Source: Janibacter sp. GXQ6167 (lineage in GTDB: Bacteria > Actinomycetota > Actinomycetes > Actinomycetales > Dermatophilaceae). Taken from it: a stretch of DNA of 10,179 bases. The notes below the pieces were generated by a model, which was given only the letters and a program-made list of their open reading frames with translations, searched no databases and was not told where the DNA came from. The translations under genes were made by a program, and so were the position numbers. Where the stretch lies: positions 2,555 through 12,733 of the forward strand of contig NZ_JBGFSK010000017.1 in the NCBI RefSeq assembly GCF_041365945.1, in the 5' to 3' direction. Numbering within the stretch: position 1 is the stretch's first letter; the number at the start of each line of letters is the position of its first letter. Positions 1 to 10,179 of this stretch are shown here, piece after piece.

Positions 1-537
1 GCATCTTCGGACATTACATTCACCTTCTTCTGCTTTCTCTCACTGCCGCCCTTCCCCATGTGCCCGGCTTTCCCGGCCTCGGAGTACTACGACGGCTCCG
101 CCCCACCCGCACCCTTCGGCTGGCAACGCACCTATCCCCACCAATGCGGGGAGCGGAATGCGGATGGTTCCCACGTTCACTGTTGTTCGGTTGACGGGCG
201 AGGCGTCCGGCTTTACCCCTGCGGCATCGTCGTGGCTACGCCGTAGACCTTCACCACGACCTGCCGGACCCGACACATACCACCGTTCCGACAGTTCCCC
301 ACCCGCCACGACCATCAACGATGGCCCCGACAAGCGGTTACGCACCGCAAACCAGCCCCGATCCACCGGGTTAGAGCTGGGCGACGATCAAGAGGCTTTA
401 CGACACCGGTTCCTCTCGTACACCTTCCCGCCTTGCTCACCAGACACGGCCCATCCGGTAGTACTGGACCGTCCTGACTATGTCACGGCTGCTCCCACCC
501 ACCCCAGGCGTTCCCCCAGGACAGGCTGCCGTCAGCT

Positions 538-1123
538 TCACTCGGCCGCTACGACGGCCAATCGATCAAGGTCTCTCACCTCCATCCGATACAACAGCGC
601 CTCGTGGCGCACGACGTGCTCGTCGACACCGATCGTGGTGACCCCGTCGAACCGACCAGGATCGTCGATCAGGCGCCGCTTGCCCTCCGCGAGCACCGCA
701 GTGTTCGCGGCGCTCCAGGAAACCCCAAGACCGGCGGCGACACGGGTCACGGTGAGGTGGTCGACGACGATGCCCCGCAGCGCCCACTCCACGCCGAGGC
801 GGGAGATCTTCGCTCGTGGCGCGGCGGCGCGAGTCATGTCCCGCCGCCACGTCCGCCGGCAGTGCGCGCACCGGTAGCGGCGGACCCGGACCAGAAGCGT
901 TGTCGGCCTATGCCCGAACGGCTCATGCGCGAGTCGACGCGTCACCGTGTCCCGCGACACACCCCTCCGCCCCGCACTTCCGACACCAGGGGTCCACCTC
1001 GACCGACCGACACTCGATCATCGCCCGGTCCCGCTCGAGCAGCTGGCCGACCGCTTCGAGCCCGAGTTCATCGAGGCGGCAGAACGTGGTCAGGTCAGGG
1101 GTCGCGAAAGTAGGGTGGAGCAC
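538..1123 (-). pseudogene. ISL3-family transposase, N-terminal part only (zf-ISL3 + HTH region up to the VDEHVVRH block), with a frameshift near 950 and a premature stop at 538
   Basis: ORFs 923..1123(-) and 538..960(-) together read MLHPTFATPDLTTFCRLDELGLE...CRKCGAEGCVAGHGD / VTRRLAHEPFGHRPTTLLVRVRRYRCAHCRRTWRRD...IGVDEHVVRHEALLYRMEVRDLD. These match the ISL3 transposase motifs C-x2-C-G...GHG, RRxxC and IGVDEHxWRH. The two ORFs overlap in different frames, which implies a 1-nt frameshift. The DDE catalytic domain is absent. Confidence 0.75.
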
Positions 1124-1235
1124 GTCGAGGTCTTTCGGGATGGCGAGCGTGAAGAACTTCCATCATCCGGGAGACCTCGACCCCTACCCGGCTGCCAACG
1201 CGCTCACCCGACTACACCCTCATTCGTGAAGAGCC
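538..1235 (-). mobile_element. ISL3-family insertion sequence remnant: terminal inverted repeat GGCTCTTCAC (minus strand, ending at 1235) plus the 5' part of a transposase gene. The element may continue in degenerate form towards position 1.
   Basis: Minus-strand end reads GGGCTCTTCACGAATGAGGG, which matches the ISL3-family terminal IR consensus GGCTCTTCG. The transposase start lies about 110 nt inside the IR, as is usual for this family. The 8 bp just outside the IR (cgataaga, 1236-1243) are a plausible AT-rich target-site duplication. Confidence 0.7.
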
Positions 1236-1653
1236 CGATAAGACGGGCGACGTTGCGGCTGACGAGTTCGTCGCGCATCGCGCGGGTCAGGGCGGCGGAC
1301 AGTACGGTGCGGAACTTCTGTGCGGTGCGGATTGAGTGGCCCTCGTCGAGCAGCGCGCAGGCGGCGTTCTGCACGTCGCGCACGGTGAGCTGGGTCAGGC
1401 GCTTGCTGCCGATGCGAGGAAGGATGTGCAGTCGCACGACGCCCTCGTATCCCCGTGCGGTGTTGCGTCGGTTGCGGCGCGGCACGACTGTCTCTAGCCA
1501 CTGCTGCAGATAGCCGGCGACCGTGACCTGTGAGTTCGGGGTCAGGATGCCGCGGCCCTCGTGCCGCGGCCCGCCCGGGCGCTTGCGTCGCCTTGCGACC
1601 CGCCGGATCGGCTCGAAAAGACGTTCTGTGGTATATCTATTACGAGAGGCCAT
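1236..1653 (-). pseudogene. Tyrosine recombinase / phage-type integrase, N-terminal SAM-like core-binding domain only; the catalytic domain has been removed by the ISL3 insertion at 1235/1236
   Basis: From the Met at 1653 the frame reads MASRNRYTTERLFEP...SQVTVAGYLQQWLETVVPRRNRRNTARGYEGVVRLHILPRIGSKRLTQLTVRDVQNAACALLDEGHSIRTAQKFRTVLSAALTRAMRDELVSRNVARLI. This is a typical integrase N-terminal core-binding domain. The ORF then reads through the IS inverted repeat and stops at 1204. The region upstream of 1653 is antisense to a well-supported plus-strand gene, so 1653 is preferred over the ORF-track start at 1857. Confidence 0.7.
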
Positions 1654-1661
1654 ATACAGGA
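1635..1661 (+). promoter_or_regulatory. AT-rich motif copy A: ATCTATT-acgagag-GCCATATACAGGA. Putative promoter or operator immediately upstream of the plus-strand cargo block; it overlaps the integrase start codon on the opposite strand.
   Basis: A 7-mer and a 13-mer are shared exactly with 9264..9283 (minus strand) in the same orientation relative to the downstream gene. It is an AT-rich island in GC-rich DNA. Confidence 0.45.
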
Positions 1662-1714
1662 TGCACCTGGGCCTTGTCTGGGGGCTACCCAGATCGAGTC
1701 TGGAGGTGTACGGC

Positions 1715-2329
1715 GTGGCCGCGCGAGTCGTCGATGTGCGTTGTCCGGGATGCGGGAGCGCCTGGAGCACCAACCAGCAGTTCTGCCAGTACTGCGGTCG
1801 CCAGGTGCTGATCAGCTCGATGTCCGACCTGATCAGCCTGGAAGCGCGCGACCTCAAGAAGCACGTCCGTACCTACGAGGACGCGCTGGACGAGGGCGCC
1901 GATGATCCGAGCGTGCATGCGGCGCTCGGCATGTGCCTGCTCAAGCTGGGGCTGCGCGACAAGGCGCTGTCGCACTTCGAGGATGCGCTGCTCGATGACA
2001 TCGAGAACTCGGAACCGTACTTCTACGCCGCCGTCGCGTCGCTGGGTGGCAAGAAGCCGTTCCTGGTTCCGCTGGCTGGCATCCGCCGCGCGGAGGAGTA
2101 CCTCACGGCGGCGCTGCGGCTCGAGGAGCGCGGAATCTACGCCTACCTCTACGGGTACATCCGCTTCGACTACTACGAGCGCAAGTCGCTGAACGTCGAG
2201 CCGTCGTACCAGCACTACCTGCAGCAGGCAGTGCTTCGCGGTGTGACCGATCTGGACATCCAGACGCTGTTCGAGCTGCTGGAGATCGTCCCTTCGTCCG
2301 CTTCCATTCCGACCAGCGTTTCCGCCTGA
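1715..2329 (+). CDS. Zinc-ribbon (CPGCG-x9-FCQYCG) plus alpha-helical TPR-like domain protein. Alternative starts are ATG 1661 (possibly leaderless) or GTG 1706.
   Basis: ORF 1523..2329. GGAGG at 1702-1706 lies 8 nt before GTG 1715. N-terminal CxxC...CxxC zinc ribbon followed by helical repeats (LGMCLLKLGLRDKALSHFEDALL...YAYLYGYIRFDYYE). High GC3 from 1715 onwards; codons between 1661 and 1715 are rare (ctt, cta, aga, agt). Confidence 0.7.
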   Translation: MAARVVDVRCPGCGSAWSTNQQFCQYCGRQVLISSMSDLISLEARDLKKHVRTYEDALDEGADDPSVHAALGMCLLKLGLRDKALSHFEDALLDDIENSEPYFYAAVASLGGKKPFLVPLAGIRRAEEYLTAALRLEERGIYAYLYGYIRFDYYERKSLNVEPSYQHYLQQAVLRGVTDLDIQTLFELLEIVPSSASIPTSVSA

Positions 2330-2365
2330 CCCCTGTTCTAACCACCCGAGAGAGGTTCCTTCGCA

Positions 2366-3061
2366 ATGGCCATCAACTATGAGCGCAACAAGAAGTACTT
2401 CAAGCAGTCCAGCCCCAAGGCCGGCATCATCCTGATCGTGATCGGCCTGGTGCTGACGCTCGCCCTCCCCGAGGCGGGCAAGCTCGTCGGCATCCTGGGC
2501 ATCCTGGGTGGCGCGGCGCTGATCTACTTCCAGTTCGCGGGCAAGCCGAGCGACGCGGACATCGACTCGGACGCTGCTGCCGCCATCGCGGACGTGAAGA
2601 AGCGCGCGCTGGGCAAGCTCGGTCTGGACGAGGACGAGGTCAAGCTCATCGACCCGGTGATCGTTCACGGCTACTACTACAAGAACATCGCCTCGGGCGT
2701 GCAGGTCAAGCTCGGCAAGGACCGCGTCTTCCGTTCCTCGAACTACGAGGGCGTCGTGCTGTTCTTCAGCGAGCACCAGCTGCACGCGTTCAAGTTCCAG
2801 TTCTCTCTCGTCTCGCCGCAGGAGAGCCGCGAGCAGACCGACGAGTACTTCTACAAGGACGTCGTGTCGGTGGCGACGCAGTCGGAGACGTTCAAGATCA
2901 ACGACATCAAGGGCAACAGCCAGCAGGTCAACTTCGAGGAGTTCAAGCTCACCACCACGGGTGGCACCTCGATCACTTCGTCGATCCGCGACGAGGGCTC
3001 GGTCAGCCGCGTCATCTCCGGCGCGCGCAGCCTGATTCGCGAGAAGAAGATCGCGTCCTGA
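2366..3061 (+). CDS. Membrane protein: two N-terminal TM helices followed by a soluble ~170-aa domain of about 170 aa (possibly a bacterial PH-like / membrane-flanked domain); function unknown
   Basis: ATG 2366 with GAGAGAGG upstream. Hydrophobic stretches IILIVIGLVLTLAL and LVGILGILGGAALIYF. High GC3. Co-directional, 36 nt after the previous gene. Confidence 0.75.
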   Translation: MAINYERNKKYFKQSSPKAGIILIVIGLVLTLALPEAGKLVGILGILGGAALIYFQFAGKPSDADIDSDAAAAIADVKKRALGKLGLDEDEVKLIDPVIVHGYYYKNIASGVQVKLGKDRVFRSSNYEGVVLFFSEHQLHAFKFQFSLVSPQESREQTDEYFYKDVVSVATQSETFKINDIKGNSQQVNFEEFKLTTTGGTSITSSIRDEGSVSRVISGARSLIREKKIAS

Positions 3062-3076
3062 CCCCGAGTTCTCTGC

Positions 3077-3115
3077 GTGCCGGGGCCGGTCGGCAGTCGC
3101 CACCGGCTCCGGCAC
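3077..3115 (+). terminator. Strong GC-rich hairpin (14 bp stem including one G-U pair, 11-nt loop) 15 nt after the stop of the membrane-protein gene. Putative intrinsic terminator or intra-operon attenuator (I-shaped; only a weak U tract, ACCAAUUCC).
   Basis: GTGCCGG-G-GCCGGT [cggcagtcgcc] ACCGGC-T-CCGGCAC is perfectly self-complementary. It lies between 3061 and the ATPase start at 3157. Confidence 0.45.
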
Positions 3116-3156
3116 ACCAATTCCGCTGCCCGAGCGTGACGTGAGGAGTGTGCCGT

Positions 3157-5841
3157 ATGCCCGCAGGCGACGCGCCCCTGACGTTCACGCCTCTCGCGCA
3201 GGGTGAAGTAGCCGCTGCTACGGTGGTCGAGGTCGTCCGCATCCCGCACGTCTCCGTGCTGGGCGATGATCCGGCTGCCGAGCTGGTGCAGCAGTCCAAG
3301 CGGGACTTCGTCAGCCTGCTGTTCGAGGCGTACCAGTCGTACCGCGGACAGTACGAGGACGGCCCCGACCGAGCTAGCGACTGCGCTCTGGAACTGCTTT
3401 GGCAAGCACACCCCATTCAGGGCCAGCCGCACGCCGCCGACCTCACGCTATTCATCATCGTTCGCGCGATCGGCGCGAACCGGGACGACGCAGCGGCGGT
3501 TGTCAACGAGCTGCACGCTGTCGTGATCAGCGCGCTCACGCTCGGCGGCTTCGACTACGCAGATCGTCCTGCCTCCGCGATCGGCGCCCAGGCGGCGGAA
3601 CGGTCGGTTGCGCTCGTGAAGGAGGAGTGGATTGAGAACCTCGGCAACCAGATCCTGCCGAGCGCCTTCGCCTTCCACCGTATCCCCACGGGCAGCCGTG
3701 ATCTCTCACGTATCGCCAGCGCCCTAACCGAGGTGCCCGGTGCGTCCCTCTCGGTTCAGCTGATCCCGGCGACACTGGAGCCTGACGAGCGGACTGCTAT
3801 CGAGCAGCTGACGCTGGCGCTCACGACCCTCGCCAACGGTGTGACGGATCAGTCGATCGGTACCGTCAGCTTCACCGCGGCGAAGCGCCTCGCGGAGATG
3901 TACTCGTATCTGGAGGGGCACAAGGACTCGCCCCTGTTTCTGTTTAACGTCGTCGTCTCCGGGCCGAAGCTCGCCGTGCCGGTGATCGCCAACCGGGTGC
4001 TCGGTCACCTCTCCGCCGACGCCGAGGTAGGCGCGCTGGCGGCACGCTTCGTCGACGCCACAGCCCTGGTGCCACGAGGCGATGCGTCCTTCGTCGCTGC
4101 ACCGTGGCAGCTGAACGAGACGCTGCTCGACCAGACTCGTGATCCGTCGCTCTGGGCGGCGGGCCGCAATCCCGGTGAGGCATTCTACCGGCTGCCGTTC
4201 CTGCTGACGGCATTCGAGGCATCGGAGTTGTTCCGTCTGCCGATCGGCAGTGACACGGTCGGCGCCGGGCTGACGGTGAACACCACGACCCGGCACTCGC
4301 GCAACTACTCGGCCGGCGTGATCGGGAGCTCGAGCATCGAAGCCGGGCGACTCGCCGGGGCGGCCGAGGTCTCGATCGGGTTCGGGCATACCGACCTGAC
4401 CAAGCACGCTTTCGTCACGGGGACGCCCGGTTCGGGTAAGACGACGTTCACGGTCGGGCTGCTCGACCGGCTCTGGCACGAGCACGGCATCCCGTATCTG
4501 GTGATCGAGCCGGCGAAGAACGAGTACCGGGCGCTGATCGAGACGACGCCGGATCTGCAGGTGTTCACCCCGGGCAAGGATCATCTGTCTCCGCTTGTGC
4601 TGAACCCGTTCCTGCCGCCAGCGGGCGTGCGGGTGCAGAGCTACAAGTCGACCCTCAAGACGGCGTTCGCAGCCGCGGTCACGATGACGAGCCCCCTGGA
4701 CAAGATCTTCGAGGACGCCCTCTCAGCCACGTACTCGCGGTTTGGCTGGTTCGATGCCGACACAGCCGCCGATGGCCGTGAGGTGTTCTCTATCCGCGAC
4801 TTCCTGGCCGTTTTCCAGGAGACCTTCGTCCGCATCGGCTACACCGGAGACGCGGCCAACATCGGACGAGCAGGCCAGGTGCGCCTGCAGAGTCTGGTTG
4901 GCCTGTTCGACACCTACCCTTCGATCCCTGTCGAGGATCTGCTGTCGAAACCCACGGTAATCGAGCTGGCAGGGATCGAGAACAGCGACGACAAGGCCCT
5001 CTACATCGCGCTCATCCTGCTGCAGGTCCTCGCCTACGTGAACGCCAACGTCGCCGGCGACGGGAAACTCAAGCACGTCCTCCTGCTCGAAGAAGCCCAC
5101 GTCTTGCTCGACGCCGACGACGCCAGCGGACCGGGCGAAGCGGACCCCGCCGCGATTGCGAAGAAGCTGCTCAAACGCATGTTGGCCGAGATCCGCTCCT
5201 ACGGCGTCGGCATCATCGTGGCCGATCAGTCGCCACGCAAGGTCGGCTCGGACGTGGTGGCGCTCACGAACATCAAGCTCGGGTTCCGGCTGGTCGAGGC
5301 CGCAGACAAGGAGATCCTGGCCGAGAGCACCAACATGAGCGACGCGCAGCGCGAGCGGCTGGCGCGGCTCCGGCCGGGCGAGGCACTCCTGTTCTACGAC
5401 CGCCTCGAAGACCCCGAGGAGATCGCCACAGCCGACTGGCGCGCCCAGCGCGGCATCCCGACGTTCGTGTCCGATGAGGAGATCGCCCGAAAGGTCACTT
5501 ACTGGCAGCGGCACCCGGAACTGCTCATGCCATACCCGGAGAGCGCCTACATCGGGGGCTGGGACGCCTCGGTTGCCGGTGCGGGCAAGGAGATCGCCCG
5601 GCGCCTCTTCGCCGCGCACGTCCCGGCCGGCGATGTCGGCGTCAAGAGATTCGGCAGCATCTACCGGCAGCTCGATGCGTTCATCGCCGCCGAACTTCCC
5701 GCGTCGATCCCGAACACGCCGGCCCTGCGGCGAGCGGTCAAGGTCAACTTCCTGCGGCTGGTCAAGTACGAGTCGCAGATCCCACTGTCGGACGCCACGA
5801 TCCACAAGACCCTCGAAGCCGAGAGGAGCCGCACAGCATGA
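3157..5841 (+). CDS. FtsK/HerA-superfamily (DUF87 / HerA-like) P-loop ATPase of about 894 aa, with a large (~420 aa) N-terminal region of unknown function
   Basis: Walker A HAFVTGTPGSGKTTF (about aa 425). DEAH-like Walker B VLLLEEAHVLL. The blocks LVIEPAKNEY and GIIVADQSP also fit HerA/VirB4-type ATPases. GAGGAG at 3143-3148 lies 8 nt upstream of ATG 3157 (the ORF track began at GTG 3148). The stop overlaps the next start (ATGA). Confidence 0.85.
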   Translation: MPAGDAPLTFTPLAQGEVAAATVVEVVRIPHVSVLGDDPAAELVQQSKRDFVSLLFEAYQSYRGQYEDGPDRASDCALELLWQAHPIQGQPHAADLTLFIIVRAIGANRDDAAAVVNELHAVVISALTLGGFDYADRPASAIGAQAAERSVALVKEEWIENLGNQILPSAFAFHRIPTGSRDLSRIASALTEVPGASLSVQLIPATLEPDERTAIEQLTLALTTLANGVTDQSIGTVSFTAAKRLAEMYSYLEGHKDSPLFLFNVVVSGPKLAVPVIANRVLGHLSADAEVGALAARFVDATALVPRGDASFVAAPWQLNETLLDQTRDPSLWAAGRNPGEAFYRLPFLLTAFEASELFRLPIGSDTVGAGLTVNTTTRHSRNYSAGVIGSSSIEAGRLAGAAEVSIGFGHTDLTKHAFVTGTPGSGKTTFTVGLLDRLWHEHGIPYLVIEPAKNEYRALIETTPDLQVFTPGKDHLSPLVLNPFLPPAGVRVQSYKSTLKTAFAAAVTMTSPLDKIFEDALSATYSRFGWFDADTAADGREVFSIRDFLAVFQETFVRIGYTGDAANIGRAGQVRLQSLVGLFDTYPSIPVEDLLSKPTVIELAGIENSDDKALYIALILLQVLAYVNANVAGDGKLKHVLLLEEAHVLLDADDASGPGEADPAAIAKKLLKRMLAEIRSYGVGIIVADQSPRKVGSDVVALTNIKLGFRLVEAADKEILAESTNMSDAQRERLARLRPGEALLFYDRLEDPEEIATADWRAQRGIPTFVSDEEIARKVTYWQRHPELLMPYPESAYIGGWDASVAGAGKEIARRLFAAHVPAGDVGVKRFGSIYRQLDAFIAAELPASIPNTPALRRAVKVNFLRLVKYESQIPLSDATIHKTLEAERSRTA

Positions 5842-7019
5842 GCGACTACGGCACCGACATTGCAGACGCCCCCGTCGACACCGGCGCGGACGTCAGCGTG
5901 CCCGATACGACCGACTACGCCGACGAGCCGGTCGACCTGGCCGAGACCCCGCCCGAGTCGGAGGCGCCCGAGGCCGAGGAGGCGCCGCCCGCCGAAGACC
6001 TCTCGGAGCCCGCAGCAGATGAACTGAGCGGCACGGCGGAGACGCCGGCGGATGCGGAGGCACCCGTCGACCTGGGCGCGGCCCCGGAAACGGCCGACGC
6101 CGCCCCGGAACAGCCCCAGGACTGGCAGGAGGGCGAGGTCGTCGATCTCGGCGACGACGCTGCCCCCGACGCCCCGCAGGAGGACGAGACCGCCGAGGCG
6201 GACGATCCTGCCGGGCGCGACCTGGGTGATCCCGACCTGGCCGACAGCCCGGAGGCCGAGGCTCCCACGGATAGCGCCGGTGAGGATCTGACGACACCGA
6301 CGGACGACGAACCGGGCGCCGGTGATGCGCCGACTGACGCCGACGAGCAGGTACCTGAGGCGGCGGAGATTGAGCCCGAGGCCGCAAACGACGTGACGGA
6401 TGCCGAACCCGAGCCCAGGGTCGATGAGTTGACAGAGGCGGCCCGGGATGAGGCCCGCCCCGCCGACGAGCTGCGCGCCGAGTACTACGCCGACGTGGCT
6501 GATGTGCTGGCCGATGACACACCATCCGACGCCGAGCCGGTCGAGACGCAGGACACTCCCGGAGCAGACGCTGCCGAGGCGCCGGAGTCGAGCGATCACG
6601 CGGACGCCGCCAATGACCGCAGCAACTCCCCAGAGAACGAGGCACTGACCTCGGCGCTAGCCGAGAAAGGCCTGTCGCTGGAGCCGGTCGATCGCTTCGA
6701 CTACAGCGACAACCCGGTTCTCGGCTACCGCGAGTCCGCCCCGCCCGAAGACGTCGCGTACGCCGTCAACGCCTGGAACGACGAGATCGCGCCCGGCATC
6801 GCGGCCGGCGCGACCCGTGAGGACTTCGCCGCCTACGACCAGGAGCACGGCCTCGAAGGGCAGCGGCAGCTGGCCGGCGTCTACGACTACATGCTCGGCG
6901 GCGACGCGATCAAGAGCGGCGGAGAGCGCGAGGACGGATCGCTCGACGTCACCGGCGGCAGGCACCGCCTGGAACAGGCGCGTCTGAACGGCGTCCAGTA
7001 CCTGCCCGTGAGGAAGTAG
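5838..7019 (+). CDS. Highly acidic protein: about 270 aa of D/E/P/A-rich low-complexity (disordered) sequence followed by a ~120-aa globular C-terminal domain ending in a ParB/sulfiredoxin-like GGRHRLEQARLNG motif
   Basis: ATG 5838 overlaps the TGA of the ATPase gene (translational coupling). GAGAGGAG lies 9 nt upstream. The C-terminus reads DVTGGRHRLEQARLNGVQYLPV, compared with the ParB/Srx consensus h-x-G-[EG]-[RH]-R-x-x-A-x-x-x-G-x-x-x-IP. High GC3 throughout. Confidence 0.75.
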   Translation: MSDYGTDIADAPVDTGADVSVPDTTDYADEPVDLAETPPESEAPEAEEAPPAEDLSEPAADELSGTAETPADAEAPVDLGAAPETADAAPEQPQDWQEGEVVDLGDDAAPDAPQEDETAEADDPAGRDLGDPDLADSPEAEAPTDSAGEDLTTPTDDEPGAGDAPTDADEQVPEAAEIEPEAANDVTDAEPEPRVDELTEAARDEARPADELRAEYYADVADVLADDTPSDAEPVETQDTPGADAAEAPESSDHADAANDRSNSPENEALTSALAEKGLSLEPVDRFDYSDNPVLGYRESAPPEDVAYAVNAWNDEIAPGIAAGATREDFAAYDQEHGLEGQRQLAGVYDYMLGGDAIKSGGEREDGSLDVTGGRHRLEQARLNGVQYLPVRK

Positions 7020-7056
7020 CCGACCCGGCATCCGATCCGACGAAAGCGAACACCGT

Positions 7057-8256
7057 ATGAAGATCTACGACGTCATCAAGAACGAGACCGGCCTTCTCAA
7101 CGACGGCCTGGGCTCGAAGGCCGTGCTGGCGTGGAAGTTCACCGGTGAGGACTTCAACGACAACACGCAGCTGATCGTCTCCGAATCGGAGGAGGCGATC
7201 TTCATCCGCGACGGCATCGCCGTGGCGACCTTCGGCGGCGGCCGCTACACGCTCAACAGCAACAACCACCCCTTCATCGGCAGGCTGAGGAACCTGCTCT
7301 CCGGCGGGGTGAGCGCGTTCAGCTCGCGGGTGTACTTCGTCAACATCGATCACAAGTTGGAACTGCTGTGGGGCACCGACAGCCCGATCCAGCTCCGCGA
7401 CCCGGTCTGGAGCCTGCAGACCAGCGTGCAGGCGCGCGGCTCGTACTCGATCCAGGTGACGGACTCCAAGAAGTTCCTGATCAAACTGCTCGGCACCAAC
7501 ATCCAGGTTTTCGACGAGCAGCAGCTCGCCGGCTACTTCCGCAGCGCCTTCTCGCAGCACATCCGCGGACAGATCGCCCGCTACATCCGCGACTCCGGCC
7601 AGGAGATCCTGGAGATCACCTCGGACATCGAGCTGCTGGCCGAGCAGCTGCACCCGAGGCTCGCACCGCTGCTGGATGAGTACGGCGTGAAGCTCGTCAA
7701 CTTCTACATCGCCGCGATCGACATCCCCACCGACGACCCGAACCGCCAAGTGCTGGAGAACTCGATCGCACAGAAGCAGGCCAAGCTGCAGAGCGCGCAG
7801 GGCGATAAGGCCGTCATGGGGCTGCTCGGGGAAGACTGGGCCAGGCAGCAGTCGGCCACCATCCTCACCGAGCTCGCCAAGAACCCCGGCGCGGGTGGCG
7901 TGGCTTCCGCGGGTGCCGCAGCAGGCGTTGGCCTGGCTGCGGGCAGCGTCTTCGGGGAGATGGCGACGCAGATGTTCACGCGCCCCGTCCAGCCCGCAGG
8001 CGACCCGATGGCTGGCAATGTCGGGCGCAACCGCACATCGCGCTTCTCGCCCGCAGAGCCTGCCGCGCCGGCCGCCGCCGAGACGTGTCCGGGCTGCGGC
8101 GCGAGCGTGGCGGCGGGAGCGAAGTTCTGCCCGGAGTGCGGCAACCGTCTCGCACCTCAGCAGGTGCCCTGCTCGGGTTGCGGAACCGCAATCGCGAGCA
8201 CGGCCAAGTTCTGCCCCGAATGCGGAACGCCGAACAACCAGGGAGCATCCTCATGA
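7057..8256 (+). CDS. SPFH/band-7 (stomatin-prohibitin-like) domain protein with two C-terminal zinc ribbons (COG4260-like membrane-protease-subunit family)
   Basis: N-terminus MKIYDVIKNETGLLNDGLGSKAVLAWKF...SESEEAIFIRDGIAV. The C-terminus carries CPGCGASVAAGAKFCPECG and CSGCGTAIASTAKFCPECG. The stop overlaps the next start. Confidence 0.8.
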   Translation: MKIYDVIKNETGLLNDGLGSKAVLAWKFTGEDFNDNTQLIVSESEEAIFIRDGIAVATFGGGRYTLNSNNHPFIGRLRNLLSGGVSAFSSRVYFVNIDHKLELLWGTDSPIQLRDPVWSLQTSVQARGSYSIQVTDSKKFLIKLLGTNIQVFDEQQLAGYFRSAFSQHIRGQIARYIRDSGQEILEITSDIELLAEQLHPRLAPLLDEYGVKLVNFYIAAIDIPTDDPNRQVLENSIAQKQAKLQSAQGDKAVMGLLGEDWARQQSATILTELAKNPGAGGVASAGAAAGVGLAAGSVFGEMATQMFTRPVQPAGDPMAGNVGRNRTSRFSPAEPAAPAAAETCPGCGASVAAGAKFCPECGNRLAPQQVPCSGCGTAIASTAKFCPECGTPNNQGASS

Positions 8257-8930
8257 CCCGCACGATCCTGCGCGCCATCCTGTGGCTCGTCCCCATCGCC
8301 GTCTACGTCGCCATCTTCCTCATCCTCGAGGCCCCGCAGGGCGCGACGTTCTGGACGTCCGCACTGCTGCTGGCGTTCGCCTACGTCATGCTCGCCGTCA
8401 GTTTCGTCGCCGTGCCGCGCAGTCGGATAGCCGCGATCCTGGCCATGCCCCTGATCCTGGTGGCGAGCATCTACTTCACTGCCGAGCTCATCGCGGCCAG
8501 CATCTTCATCTACGTGCAGGACATTCCATACCCGTGGGTGATCATCACGCAGCTGATCCTGGCCGCGATCTTCCTCGTCGTGTTCCTCACCACCTTGTTG
8601 TCCAACGAGGCCATCGCCGCCCAGATCGAGACCCAGCACGCCGACGTCCTGGTGATCAAGAGCGCCGTCACCCGCATCACGGCCCTGGGACGTGTCGCCC
8701 ACGATCCGCGCCTGGCGAAGTCGCTGGACGGGCTGGCCGAGGAGTTCCGCTACAGCCCGACGATGCGCTCGAACCAGGTGCGCGAAGTCGACGCGCAGAT
8801 CGCCGTGCAGCTCGAGCGACTGGAGAGCCTCGTCCACATCCAAGCTTCGCAAGAGGATACCGTCGGCCAGATCGCGGCGATATCCGGGGCGCTCGCTTCA
8901 CGCAACGAGGCGATCAAGCTCCGCCAGTAG
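8253..8930 (+). CDS. Integral membrane protein (about 4 TM helices) with a C-terminal amphipathic / coiled-coil cytoplasmic domain; translationally coupled partner of the SPFH protein
   Basis: ATG 8253 overlaps the TGA of the SPFH gene (tcATGA). Hydrophobic segments LWLVPIAVYVAIFLIL, LLLAFAYVMLAVSFVAV, AILAMPLILVASIYF and ITQLILAAIFLVVFLTTLL, followed by a helical tail (QIAVQLERLESLVHIQASQEDTVGQIAAISGALASRNEAIKLRQ). Confidence 0.75.
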   Translation: MTRTILRAILWLVPIAVYVAIFLILEAPQGATFWTSALLLAFAYVMLAVSFVAVPRSRIAAILAMPLILVASIYFTAELIAASIFIYVQDIPYPWVIITQLILAAIFLVVFLTTLLSNEAIAAQIETQHADVLVIKSAVTRITALGRVAHDPRLAKSLDGLAEEFRYSPTMRSNQVREVDAQIAVQLERLESLVHIQASQEDTVGQIAAISGALASRNEAIKLRQ

Positions 8931-9226
8931 GAGGAGGTGCATAGGGCAGACCCGCGCGCAGATCCGGCCACGGCTGCGGCACCAGCTGGTCGAGCGTGAC
9001 ACCGAGCACCTGCGCGATGGCCATGATCTTGCGCAGACTCGGGTTGGCCGGAGTCTCCGGCATCGACTCGCCCTTCTCGAACTTCTGGAAGGTGTAGCGC
9101 GTGAGCCCAGCGGCGTAGGCAACCTGCTCCTGGGTGAGTCCACGGTCGATCCGGTGCCGCTGAATGCTGGCACCAAGTTCGCGCGCGTACTGGGGCCAAG
9201 GGCCATCGGGTCGTCGTTTTTGCCAT
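8914..9226 (-). pseudogene. XRE-family (Cro/CI-type) helix-turn-helix transcriptional regulator. The reading frame is interrupted by a 1-nt frameshift inside a 5-nt homopolymer (plus-strand T5 at 9217-9221). The 3' end overlaps the end of the membrane-protein gene convergently by 17 nt.
   Basis: The HTH frame reads ...RELGASIQRHRIDRGLTQEQVAYAAGLTRYTFQKFEKGESMPETPANPSLRKIMAIAQVLGVTLDQLV, but has no ATG/GTG/TTG before Met-56. ATG 9226 is in the -1 frame; removing one A from the A5 run gives an intact 104-aa protein, MAKRRPDGPWPQYARELGASIQRH.... This frame is not in the ORF track because it lacks a start. Confidence 0.6.
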
Positions 9227-9263
9227 CACCCCAGGCTGAGCAGGTGGCCTCCCGGAACGAACC

Positions 9264-9283
9264 TCCTGTATATGGCAATAGAT
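9264..9283 (-). promoter_or_regulatory. AT-rich motif copy B: ATCTATTGCCATATACAGGA (minus strand), 37 nt upstream of the XRE start. Putative promoter or operator.
   Basis: Exact 13-mer GCCATATACAGGA and 7-mer ATCTATT shared with 1635..1661, in the same orientation relative to the downstream gene. Confidence 0.45.
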
Positions 9284-9376
9284 CCGCTCGATCAGTAACC
9301 CCGCGTGGCCGTCGGCGACGATAGGCGCATGAATGAAGAAGGCCCGGGAGCCGCTCCAGCCGAGAACTCGTGGTTC

Positions 9377-9919
9377 TCAAGGCCGGGGCGAACTCCCGAG
9401 CAGGGCGTGCAGCTGATGGCTGGCTGGTGAGACGGCGCGAATGCGGGTCTCGTGGAGGGCGGGGTCGTGCGTGCGCAGGTACATCGCCCAGAACGCCGCG
9501 TCGGCATACGTTGTGTGCAGATCTGACTGCGCCCGCCAGCCGCTCGAAGCGGTGCGCCGGTAGCCGACTTCGTAAGGGCCGCCATGCAGGAGTTCCTGCA
9601 CGAGTGATGCCGGGACGTCACCGACCGGGTAGGTGCTGCCGATATCGCCCACGAGGAGCACGTCGCCGTGCAACGCCGGCCGCTGCCTTGAAGTGGTGTC
9701 CCAGAACCAGCGCAGCGACGAGGCGCGCAGGTTCATCGGGAGCCCGTTTCGGCGGTCGTCGGCGTCGAGCCACATCGTGACACCTCGGCTCTCGATGTCG
9801 ATCGGGATCACCAGATCAGCGAGCTGCTGAATGTCTGCGAACCCTGCGACCTCCCGCGTTTCGAGTTGTTGCTCGATCTGCGCCGGGATGAGAACAGCCG
9901 TGACGGTCTCACCATTCAC
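9377..9919 (-). CDS. DUF3846-family protein (a small family common in actinobacterial phages and integrative elements) with a ~80-aa C-terminal extension
   Basis: GTG start at 9919 with GGGTGAG upstream. The N-terminal 100 aa (TAVLIPAQIEQQLETREVAGFADIQQLADLVIPIDIE...GVTMWLDADDRRNGLPMNLRASSLRWFWD...GDVLLVGDIGSTYPVGDVPASLVQELL) fit my recollection of the DUF3846 pattern (VxPADG...VxE...LxxLxxxVGGxIE...xWxNEEGxLxxLPxNxxAT.L). Confidence 0.65.
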   Translation of the reverse strand: MNGETVTAVLIPAQIEQQLETREVAGFADIQQLADLVIPIDIESRGVTMWLDADDRRNGLPMNLRASSLRWFWDTTSRQRPALHGDVLLVGDIGSTYPVGDVPASLVQELLHGGPYEVGYRRTASSGWRAQSDLHTTYADAAFWAMYLRTHDPALHETRIRAVSPASHQLHALLGSSPRP

Positions 9920-10179
9920 GACGGCTCACCCGCAGTGAGGCAGTAGTGCCCCGTAGCGTGGTGTAGCCCGCGGTGGCCGGCTCGTCGTTCGCGACGTAGG
10001 CGCGGTCACCGTGTGATCCTTCGAGAAGTCTCTTACCTCCACTCGAAAGGCATCATCACGATGACCGCTCCTCATATTGTCGACAGTGAGGATGGGTTTT
10101 GGCATCCCCGGGTGGAGGTCTGACTCGATTGTCGACGGGCGTCAGCGACTGCCTTTGCATGGGATTCGTCGATCTTCAG

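Follow-up and report, generated by a model that had tools for sequence, protein, structure and literature searches.

A group II intron in an ISL3-family insertion sequence in a tyrosine integrase fragment: a very probable three-layer stack of mobile-element remains in Janibacter sp. GXQ6167

The stretch of DNA analyzed here, hereafter called the window, comprises 10,179 nucleotides of Janibacter sp. GXQ6167 (assembly GCF_041365945.1, contig NZ_JBGFSK010000017.1, positions 2,555 to 12,733 of the forward strand), and its own numbering is used throughout. Next to an operon of six genes on the plus strand, its first 1653 positions carry three minus-strand features: an internal fragment of a tyrosine integrase gene (1236..1562), the 5' part of an ISL3-family insertion sequence (IS; 613..1235), and the 5' 612 nt of a group II intron, which run off the left edge (1..612). 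The open reading frames (ORFs) on the minus strand at 538-1653 are an integrase-like one (1653->1204) and two overlapping transposase-like ones (1123->923 and 960->538), while the leftmost ~0.6 kb holds no convincing ORF. A preliminary description, made from the letters of the sequence, had read this region as an ISL3 insertion that truncates the integrase of an element carrying the operon. We consider it very probable that positions 1-1653 are instead a three-layer stack of mobile-element remains, in which the integrase fragment is interrupted by the IS, and the IS by the intron. Such an accumulation of selfish DNA is commonplace; its parts are of known kinds, and it does not constitute a new system.

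The intron was recognized by homology. In a search of a plasmid collection the query split in two, with 604-1235 matching ISL3 transposase genes and 1-612 matching DNA directly 5' of annotated ltrA genes. The latter segment is 73-70% identical at the nucleotide level to ltrA-upstream DNA in records of Streptomyces, Rhodococcus, Nonomuraea, and Kitasatospora, and 78-83% identical to the introns residing in two other ISL3 copies (L003 and L004). It consists of the region upstream of the intron protein ORF together with the first 14 nt of that ORF, ATGTCCGAAGATGC, whose ATG lies at 14->12 on the minus strand and which would encode a reverse transcriptase/maturase. The ltrA starts annotated by the NCBI pipeline PGAP in three of the matching records (H7, H8, and H20) overlap the query by 13-14 nt, and ATG(T/C)C(C/G)GAAGA is conserved in the alignment. 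At its other end the intron begins with GTGCG (612->608), in agreement with the GUGYG boundary of group II introns, directly after the ...CACGTC of the transposase ORF and on the same strand. The junction at 613/612 reads ...GACGAGCACGTC|GTGCGCCACGAGG (GTC GAC GAG CAC GTC |) and has the same form as in the relatives, and uninterrupted ISL3 elements read GVDEHV-WRH at this point. The first nine intron bases, GTGCGCCAC (604-612, minus strand), resemble the displaced 3' exon TGGCG(C/T)CAC; read-through across the junction therefore gives VRH where the intact element has WRH, and alignments made by BLAST with intact copies of the IS extend 9 nt past the true junction.

Relatives in which the whole arrangement can be followed show the order ISL3 transposase N-terminus (194 aa), a protein of ~500 aa with RVT_1 and GIIM domains, and DDE_Tnp_ISL3 C-terminus. 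The intron protein of these relatives measures 499-503 aa, matches TIGR04416 with 386 bits, and has no HNH endonuclease domain besides its RVT_1 and GIIM domains. In two of them, L004 and L005, an insert of 2186 nt sits exactly between positions 3121 and 3122 of the record of an intact IS (L006); the IS itself has neither lost nor duplicated any sequence. The insert starts with GTGCG and ends with ...CCCAAC, and the last 99 nt of the L004 insert match the Rfam domain V/VI model RF00029 with 52.6 bits (gathering score 40; E 7e-9). L004 and L005 are two ISL3::intron composites at different sites in the same metagenome sample (5894-9500). Only 8 differences separate them across the 5' exon, the complete intron, and 140 nt at the start of the 3' exon; over the remainder of the IS they are ~85% identical, a mosaic suggesting that the intron spread from one diverged copy of the IS to another and that flanking exon sequence was co-converted or recombined along with it. 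The right inverted repeat of L004 is duplicated, with ends at 9500 and 9630.

Target recognition by the intron could be examined in an alignment of eight homologous intron 5' regions that lie in six different exon contexts. Exon-binding site 2 (EBS2; CGTCGCC, 386->380 on the minus strand) can pair with CGACG at positions -9 to -13 of its 5' exon in the ISL3 transposase gene, the intron-binding site 2 (IBS2). The segment in this alignment column is complementary, in each of the eight introns, to that intron's own exon at about -9 to -15; the cognate pairs score 5-6.5 of 7, and unrelated exons score at most 5, except for the L002/L013 combination, two introns with similar target sites. EBS1 (TATGTGT, 279->273, minus strand) lies in a hairpin loop of the predicted fold and pairs with exon positions -2 to -7 (GCACGT) with the help of G-U pairs. 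Across the eight introns, the segment in this column is complementary to the respective exon from -1 or -2 to -7. The equivalent loop of L002, TGACAGC, matches its own exon, which is a different one (GCTGTCA), at every base; the EBS2/EBS1 pair of this intron is TTCTTGC/TGACAGC against the exon GTAAGAAcGCTGTCA, and L014 pairs at 7/7 positions with wobbles. EBS2 separates cognate from non-cognate exons clearly, EBS1 less so. Complementarity to IBS1 and IBS2 is present in the window copy as well, with a weaker signal for EBS1 than for EBS2. The consensus fold that RNAalifold predicts for the eight homologues has 170 pairs, of which 64 show compensatory changes; EBS2 stays unpaired in it.

The window stops only 14 nt into the reverse transcriptase ORF, as it might if the intron here were merely a 5' fragment, or if the contig ended through repeat collapse, with the IS truly broken beyond the window. 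Multi-copy introns and IS elements frequently break assemblies, and decayed copies do exist: in L003, ~177 nt of the 3' exon are missing or diverged, and copies of the intron RmInt1 are known to fragment (PMC4496777), which we count in favor of this alternative. Nevertheless, the 612 nt that are present align from end to end with full-length relatives without large indels, and all three full composite relatives that were examined are complete through the 3' part of the IS. We therefore regard a mere intron fragment as unlikely, without being far-fetched, and favor an intron that would continue to the left of the window as it does in its relatives.

The host of the intron is the 5' part of an ISL3-family element, comprising an inverted repeat, a leader, and transposase codons 1-173 up to ...GVDEHV (613..1235, minus strand). 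Its counterpart is the stretch 1-621 of an intact IS of 1426 bp in the Microbacterium plasmid NZ_CP089591 (L006), and the window holds the first 623 bp of its own IS. The 538-960 frame matches the Pfam family Zn_ribbon_ISL3 (PF14690) above the gathering score (E 3.7e-6). When the frameshift described below is repaired, the N-terminus matches positions 2-132 of the 370 positions of the NCBIfam model transpos_ISL3 (NF033550) with E 1e-28, short of the cutoff set for the whole protein since no more than a third of it is available, and it has 1853 homologues at E<=1e-10, the named ones being ISL3 family transposases. The preliminary description had made its ISL3 assignment depend on an IS-family match for the 538-1123 frame, and these two profiles supply it. 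Only the first residues of the DDE domain, GVDEHV, lie inside the window, and in relatives the remainder of this domain follows the intron.

The transposase N-terminus is split into the ORFs 1123->923 and 960->538 by a 1-nt insertion at a run of G residues at 962-965 (feature 958..965, minus strand). The window has GGAGGGGTGTG where L001 has GGA-GGGCGTG and L003 has GGA-AGGCGTC, both with one base fewer and an unbroken ORF. Judged from these alignments, the frameshift is real in this sequence, as had been suspected from the beginning. A programmed frameshift was considered as well and rejected, as the frame of the relatives is unbroken. Since the extra base at 962-965 destroys the frame in both spliced and unspliced transcripts, this copy of the IS would be dead.

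The second half of the same claim, that the transposase is also cut short, fared differently: homology to the IS ends at 613 since the group II intron begins at 612. Beyond this point the frame runs into a tail of 24 residues, VRHEALLYRMEVRDLDRLAVVAAE*, translated from the 5' end of the intron (538..612, minus strand). Its stop codon (540-538) is intron sequence, and the transposase therefore looked truncated. Of the best 120 homologue clusters, 76 carry this intron-derived tail at the corresponding codon, with a length of exactly 194 aa in 53 of the 76, and 28 read DEHVWRH without interruption. The preliminary version, in which the ISL3 element is a truncated stump whose transposase ends at a deletion near 538-600, with host or island DNA of no relation to it at 1-537, would account for a transposase-like ORF that does stop at 540-538 and for a window in which no DDE domain is found. 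It has become very improbable, given that 1-612 is homologous to group II intron 5' regions at eight other loci, that the junction is a canonical GTGCG, and that in dozens of ISL3 copies this junction recurs at the same codon, with the DDE domain continuing beyond the intron. For the part of the IS inside the window, the intron homology and the junction refute a deletion at its left end, which we accordingly rejected.

With an intron at this position, the unspliced mRNA would yield a truncated Zn-ribbon/helix-turn-helix (HTH) protein with the 24-residue intron-coded tail, and splicing would in general restore the transposase ORF. One may speculate about a switch between two products, in which the unspliced protein of ~194 aa acts as a transposition inhibitor or as a regulator that binds the inverted repeats, and the spliced form is the full transposase. 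We find such a switch improbable, although compatible with the cluster counts given above; the conserved length of 194 aa is equally explained by conservation of the intron RNA structure.

The outer end of the IS is defined by a 24-bp left terminal inverted repeat, GGCTCTTCACGAATGAGGGTGTAG (1235->1212, minus strand), which matches both inverted repeats of L004 and of L006. Those repeats read GGCTCTTC..n..AGGGTGTAG, and the window repeat reads GGCTCTTCAC..AGGGTGTAG over 1235->1212; like other ISL3 termini, it begins with GGCTCTT. The decamer GGCTCTTCAC (1226-1235, minus strand) has its sole exact copy in the window here, and the octamer CGATAAGA (TCTTATCG on the gene strand) adjoins it outside at 1236-1243 (plus strand) as the predicted target-site duplication. 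As short strings, neither is more frequent than expected by chance, and their significance comes from the alignments to other IS copies only. In BLASTN comparisons of the minus strand with five independent ISL3 copies, homology starts at 1235/1236 each time and the flanks are unrelated; nucleotide identity to the window is 96% for L001, 83% for L003, 78% for L004/L005, and 81% for L006. Duplications of 8 bp were verified in the relatives (CCTTATCG in L004 and CCTATGAT in L006), and the empty site in uninterrupted integrase relatives reads ACTTATCG|ACTGCC (L007) or CCTCATCG|AACTGCC (L017). On these alignments, insertion of an ISL3 element into a tyrosine integrase gene at 1235/1236 can be regarded as confirmed. 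The inverted repeat of the preliminary description is thereby borne out, and its cgataaga stands as a candidate duplication. Within the window, a search for the partners that it had expected, a second inverted repeat and a second copy of CGATAAGA, gave neither beyond chance.

In these properties the element resembles known members of its family. It shares the GGCTCTTC... inverted repeats of ~24 bp with the intact copy in Microbacterium sp. J1-1 (plasmid NZ_CP089591), and its ISL3-family relatives make 8-bp target duplications and encode a transposase in which Zn_ribbon_ISL3 is followed by an HTH and a DDE domain starting with GVDEHVWRH. Unlike that intact copy, the one in the window has a frameshift and an intron. 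More distant Rhodococcus copies have been named 'ISL3-like element ISPfr2 family' by PGAP. The leader contains a conserved hairpin (1122..1184, minus strand; -37 kcal/mol, z -2.7) that ends directly 5' of the GTG start codon (1123->1121), is kept in L001 and L003, and may occlude translation initiation from read-through transcripts. The Rfam families mir-36_2 and Ms_IGR-7 matched it below threshold on the opposite strand.

Both IS elements and introns are repetitive sequences and the contig is short (12.7 kb), so that the junctions might be assembly chimeras at repeats rather than biological insertions. A misassembly would, however, be expected to join inside shared repeat sequence and not at element termini adjoining unique DNA, and both junctions lie at exact element ends, one at the first base of the inverted repeat and the other at the GTGCG of an intron in the homing site of its family. 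Assembly chimeras are accordingly a highly improbable source of the two junctions, which we read as insertions.

The gene into which the IS was inserted is represented by ~109 codons (1236..1562, minus strand) that encode only the SAM-like core-binding domain of a tyrosine integrase. The 1653->1204 frame matches the Pfam family Phage_int_SAM_3 (PF14659) with E 3.2e-10. The DNA is 87% identical in L007 and L008 over 1562->1236, and likewise 87% in L017, where homology extends over 1554->1236 only. The homology with L007/L008 breaks off precisely at 1236; there the relatives read on through ...ARLID LPMAKRKEFLPWSPDEV...GLRAGE into the start of the catalytic domain; at the insertion point, the uninterrupted L007/L008 and L017 genes read ...ARLI followed by (E/D)LPMAKRKEFLPW...GLRAGE. 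Continuation of the integrase ORF past 1236 in relatives had been named in advance as a finding that would speak against the insertion. The continuation was indeed found, but the test was ill-posed, as an insertion predicts it. The catalytic domain itself (R..K..H-x-x-R..H/W..Y) is absent from the whole window, according to both tblastn with the sequence of a relative and Pfam, and to this extent the first description of the integrase holds. L007 (2240-2275) and L008, the closest uninterrupted relatives of the integrase, which come from two Logan samples, have two frameshifts of 1 nt each close to the codons that correspond to window 1236-1265, so that this copy appears to be decaying, unless the two share assembly errors.

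The other end of the fragment is no natural gene start either. An exhaustive HMMER search identified an intact relative of 549 aa (P0123), of which the fragment represents residues 58-163 with 92% aa identity, and most other matches place it at about residues 56-165 of proteins of 380-560 aa. In annotated Streptomyces integrases, the match begins 59-61 codons into the gene and ends 232-236 codons before the stop. The locus of P0123 (L017) has the gene order XRE regulator, M78 peptidase, HTH_17 protein (Xis), integrase (Int), and large serine recombinase. Among known systems, the fragment is closest to the tyrosine integrases of such XRE/ImmA/Xis/Int modules and to the xis-int modules found on integrative plasmids of Streptomyces, and more distant genes annotated as 'site-specific integrase' match it over this domain. 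In contrast to L017-type integrases, it comes without the arm-binding N-terminus, the catalytic domain, a start codon, and the xis and regulator genes. A DNA search of 1236-1720 against a phage collection gave no match. Judged by these comparisons, the integrase is an internal fossil broken at both ends, not a gene simply split by an IS. It is nonfunctional, dead for three independent reasons.

The second breakpoint, which joins integrase codon ~58 to the region upstream of the operon, lies at 1563..1573: integrase homology ends at 1554-1562, and synteny of the operon with Microbacterium sp. HA-8 (L009) starts at 1574. On the available alignments, this break removed the arm-binding N-terminus (residues 1-57), the start codon, and the upstream xis and regulator genes. 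An 11-bp direct repeat, TGCCGCGGCCC, occurs at 1548-1558 and 1562-1572, 3 bp apart, and straddles the junction; it may reflect microhomology or a small duplication that arose in the rearrangement. The DNA beyond (1574..1653, minus strand) is intergenic or promoter DNA of the operon, 88% conserved in L009, and constitutes the non-integrase 5' part of an annotated 149-aa 'hypothetical protein' (WP_370895059.1). The preliminary description, which located the inverted repeat at integrase codon ~139, had counted along this ORF; the junction of the IS at 1235/1236 stands, whereas the codon number derives from a chimeric frame, the true integrase sequence being 1562->1236.

By homology, the 149-aa ORF (1653->1204) is a chimera of operon-upstream DNA, integrase fragment, and 10 codons of IS inverted repeat (GLFTNEGVVG). 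A 139-aa query from it retrieved a relative (P0122) with 94% identity, and the identical protein WP_370895059.1 of Janibacter sp. GXQ6167 itself. That the ORF is a genuine small gene for a stand-alone SAM-like DNA-binding protein, as its ATG and its annotation by NCBI might imply, is hardly credible and was rejected: its first 30 residues stem from DNA upstream of the operon and are shared by none of the homologues among the relatives found, the same frame in L009 reads ATG GCC TCT TAG and thus stops after three codons, its last 10 residues are translated from the inverted repeat, and among the proteins found only WP_370895059.1 itself covers it from end to end.

Several points weigh against the stack of integrase fragment, IS, and intron that we favor. 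At the gathering threshold, Rfam models find no match in the window, and at E<=5 (positions 1-1300) they give only chance-level matches to the leader hairpin; the only group II model that matches a relative covers the 3' end of the intron, which lies outside the window, and the models for 5' domains are silent. EBS1 and IBS1 are mismatched at position -1 in this copy, and the sliding EBS1 score alone discriminates weakly. The frameshift in the transposase falls within a homopolymer, where a sequencing error is conceivable. Finally, all that is placed to the left of position 1, namely domains V/VI and most of the ORF of the intron, the 3' part of the IS, its right inverted repeat, the second TCTTATCG, and the catalytic half of the integrase, is projected from relatives only.

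With these reservations, the locus may be explained by three successive events. A tyrosine integrase gene of ~549 codons would have lost its first 57 codons via an illegitimate junction at 1563-1573, which would have fused the remnant to DNA upstream of an unrelated, horizontally shared operon. An ISL3-family IS (~1.43 kb without intron) would then have transposed into integrase codon 163/164, leaving the end of its left inverted repeat at 1235 and, as expected from ISL3 insertion, an 8-bp duplication of TCTTATCG. The group II intron would have entered last, in sense orientation, between the GTC (Val) and TGG (Trp) codons of GVDEHV|WRH at 613/612. If so, the DNA to the left should contain ~1.57 kb more of the intron (reverse transcriptase/maturase and RF00029 domain V/VI) and then TGGCGNCAC... 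with ~0.8 kb of ISL3 DDE sequence. Beyond the DDE part, the IS would be expected to end in its right inverted repeat, ...CTACACCCT..GTGAAGAGCC, and to be followed by the gene-strand octamer TCTTATCG and by the integrase from (E/D)LPMAKRKEF onwards.

By analogy with a well-known intron, the likely mechanism of the last step is retrohoming by reverse splicing into the ISL3 site. The intron RNA would recognize the DNA site by pairing of EBS2 and EBS1 with the 13 nt upstream of the insertion point, and the intron protein, a reverse transcriptase and maturase that lacks an endonuclease in the relatives, would copy the reverse-spliced RNA into DNA. The natural homing site of RmInt1 lies within the transposase gene of ISRm2011-2 in Sinorhizobium meliloti; its protein likewise has reverse transcriptase and maturase parts and no endonuclease domain, and the intron spreads by retrohoming into intron-less copies of the IS (PMC1802570, PMC5010178). 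The intron described here resembles RmInt1 in having an IS transposase gene as its home, in the RVT_1 and GIIM architecture of its relatives' protein, and in an EBS/IBS-paired site. It differs in its host IS family, which is ISL3 and not IS630, and in occurring in the phylum Actinomycetota. Literature searches for a group II intron residing in ISL3 elements returned nothing specific.

The operon to the right of the stack (1715-8930, plus strand) is conserved as a block of six genes in Microbacterium sp. HA-8 and in a metagenome-assembled genome (MAG; L010). The genes encode a Zn-ribbon and TPR protein (1715-2329), a 231-aa membrane protein (2366-3061), an 897-aa HerA-like DUF87 ATPase (3148-5841; best PADLOC match mad8 with E 9e-17, besides several HerA models), a very acidic 393-aa protein without a Pfam match (5838-7019), a double-zinc-ribbon protein of the SPFH/Band_7_1 type (7057-8256), and a further membrane protein (8085-8930). 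The C-terminal GGRHR...LPV motif of the acidic protein is reminiscent of ParB/Srx-type domains. From its predicted products, the operon is possibly a defense or membrane-stress module.

The preliminary description assigned the integrase to the element carrying this operon and placed an island boundary just to its left. Nucleotide identity to L009 is 88-90% over 1574-9194, and then again over 9195-9939 after two IS elements, and identity to L010 is 79-80% over window 1634-8929. The left flanks differ completely among the three genomes, with DUF6907 and XRE genes in L009 and RDD, luciferase-like, and GH3 genes in L010, and no relative of the integrase lies within 10 kb of the operon in L009 or L010. 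A tRNA scan of the window found none, and a DNA search with the operon and the integrase region against the plasmid collection gave no match. An integrative element bounded by this integrase would be expected to keep it beside the cargo, with attachment-site repeats or a tRNA at the boundary. The idea that the fragment is the operon's own integrase, with an island boundary just to the left, is unsupported, if conceivable.

On the far side of the operon, the minus-strand frame at 8914-9232 looks by eye like an XRE-type HTH (...RIDRGLTQEQVAYAAGLTRYTFQKFEKGE...SLRKIMAIAQVLGVTLDQLV), has no ATG, GTG, or TTG start upstream of the HTH, and gave no Pfam match at E<=1; it is either a pseudogene or has an unusual start. 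The minus-strand frame at 9377-9919 shows a weak match to DUF3846 (E 1.7e-5; 25.4 bits, below the gathering score of 27.5), and the same neighborhood of L009 contains an unambiguous DUF3846 gene (E 3e-19; 19531-20061). No Pfam match was obtained for L009 18811-19554, which aligns to window 9195-9939. The two IS elements in L009, of the IS5 and IS1182 types, are inserted at the point equivalent to window 9194/9195.

These results bear on annotation as well as on biology. The 149-aa 'hypothetical protein' and the 140- and 66-aa ORFs are artefacts of nested mobile elements, and many 194-aa database 'proteins' represent the N-termini of ISL3 transposases whose frame runs on into a group II intron. 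The integrase fragment cannot serve as evidence that the HerA/SPFH operon resides on an integrative island, or that a boundary lies just to its left. If the doubtful two-product switch were nevertheless true, the rate at which a widespread actinobacterial clade of ISL3 elements transposes would be set by how efficiently the intron is spliced. Homing into IS elements is expected behavior for bacterial group II introns, and the case is of modest, specialist interest. Within that scope, it would be a second, apparently widespread example, after RmInt1 in ISRm2011-2, of a group II intron homing in the transposase gene of an insertion sequence.

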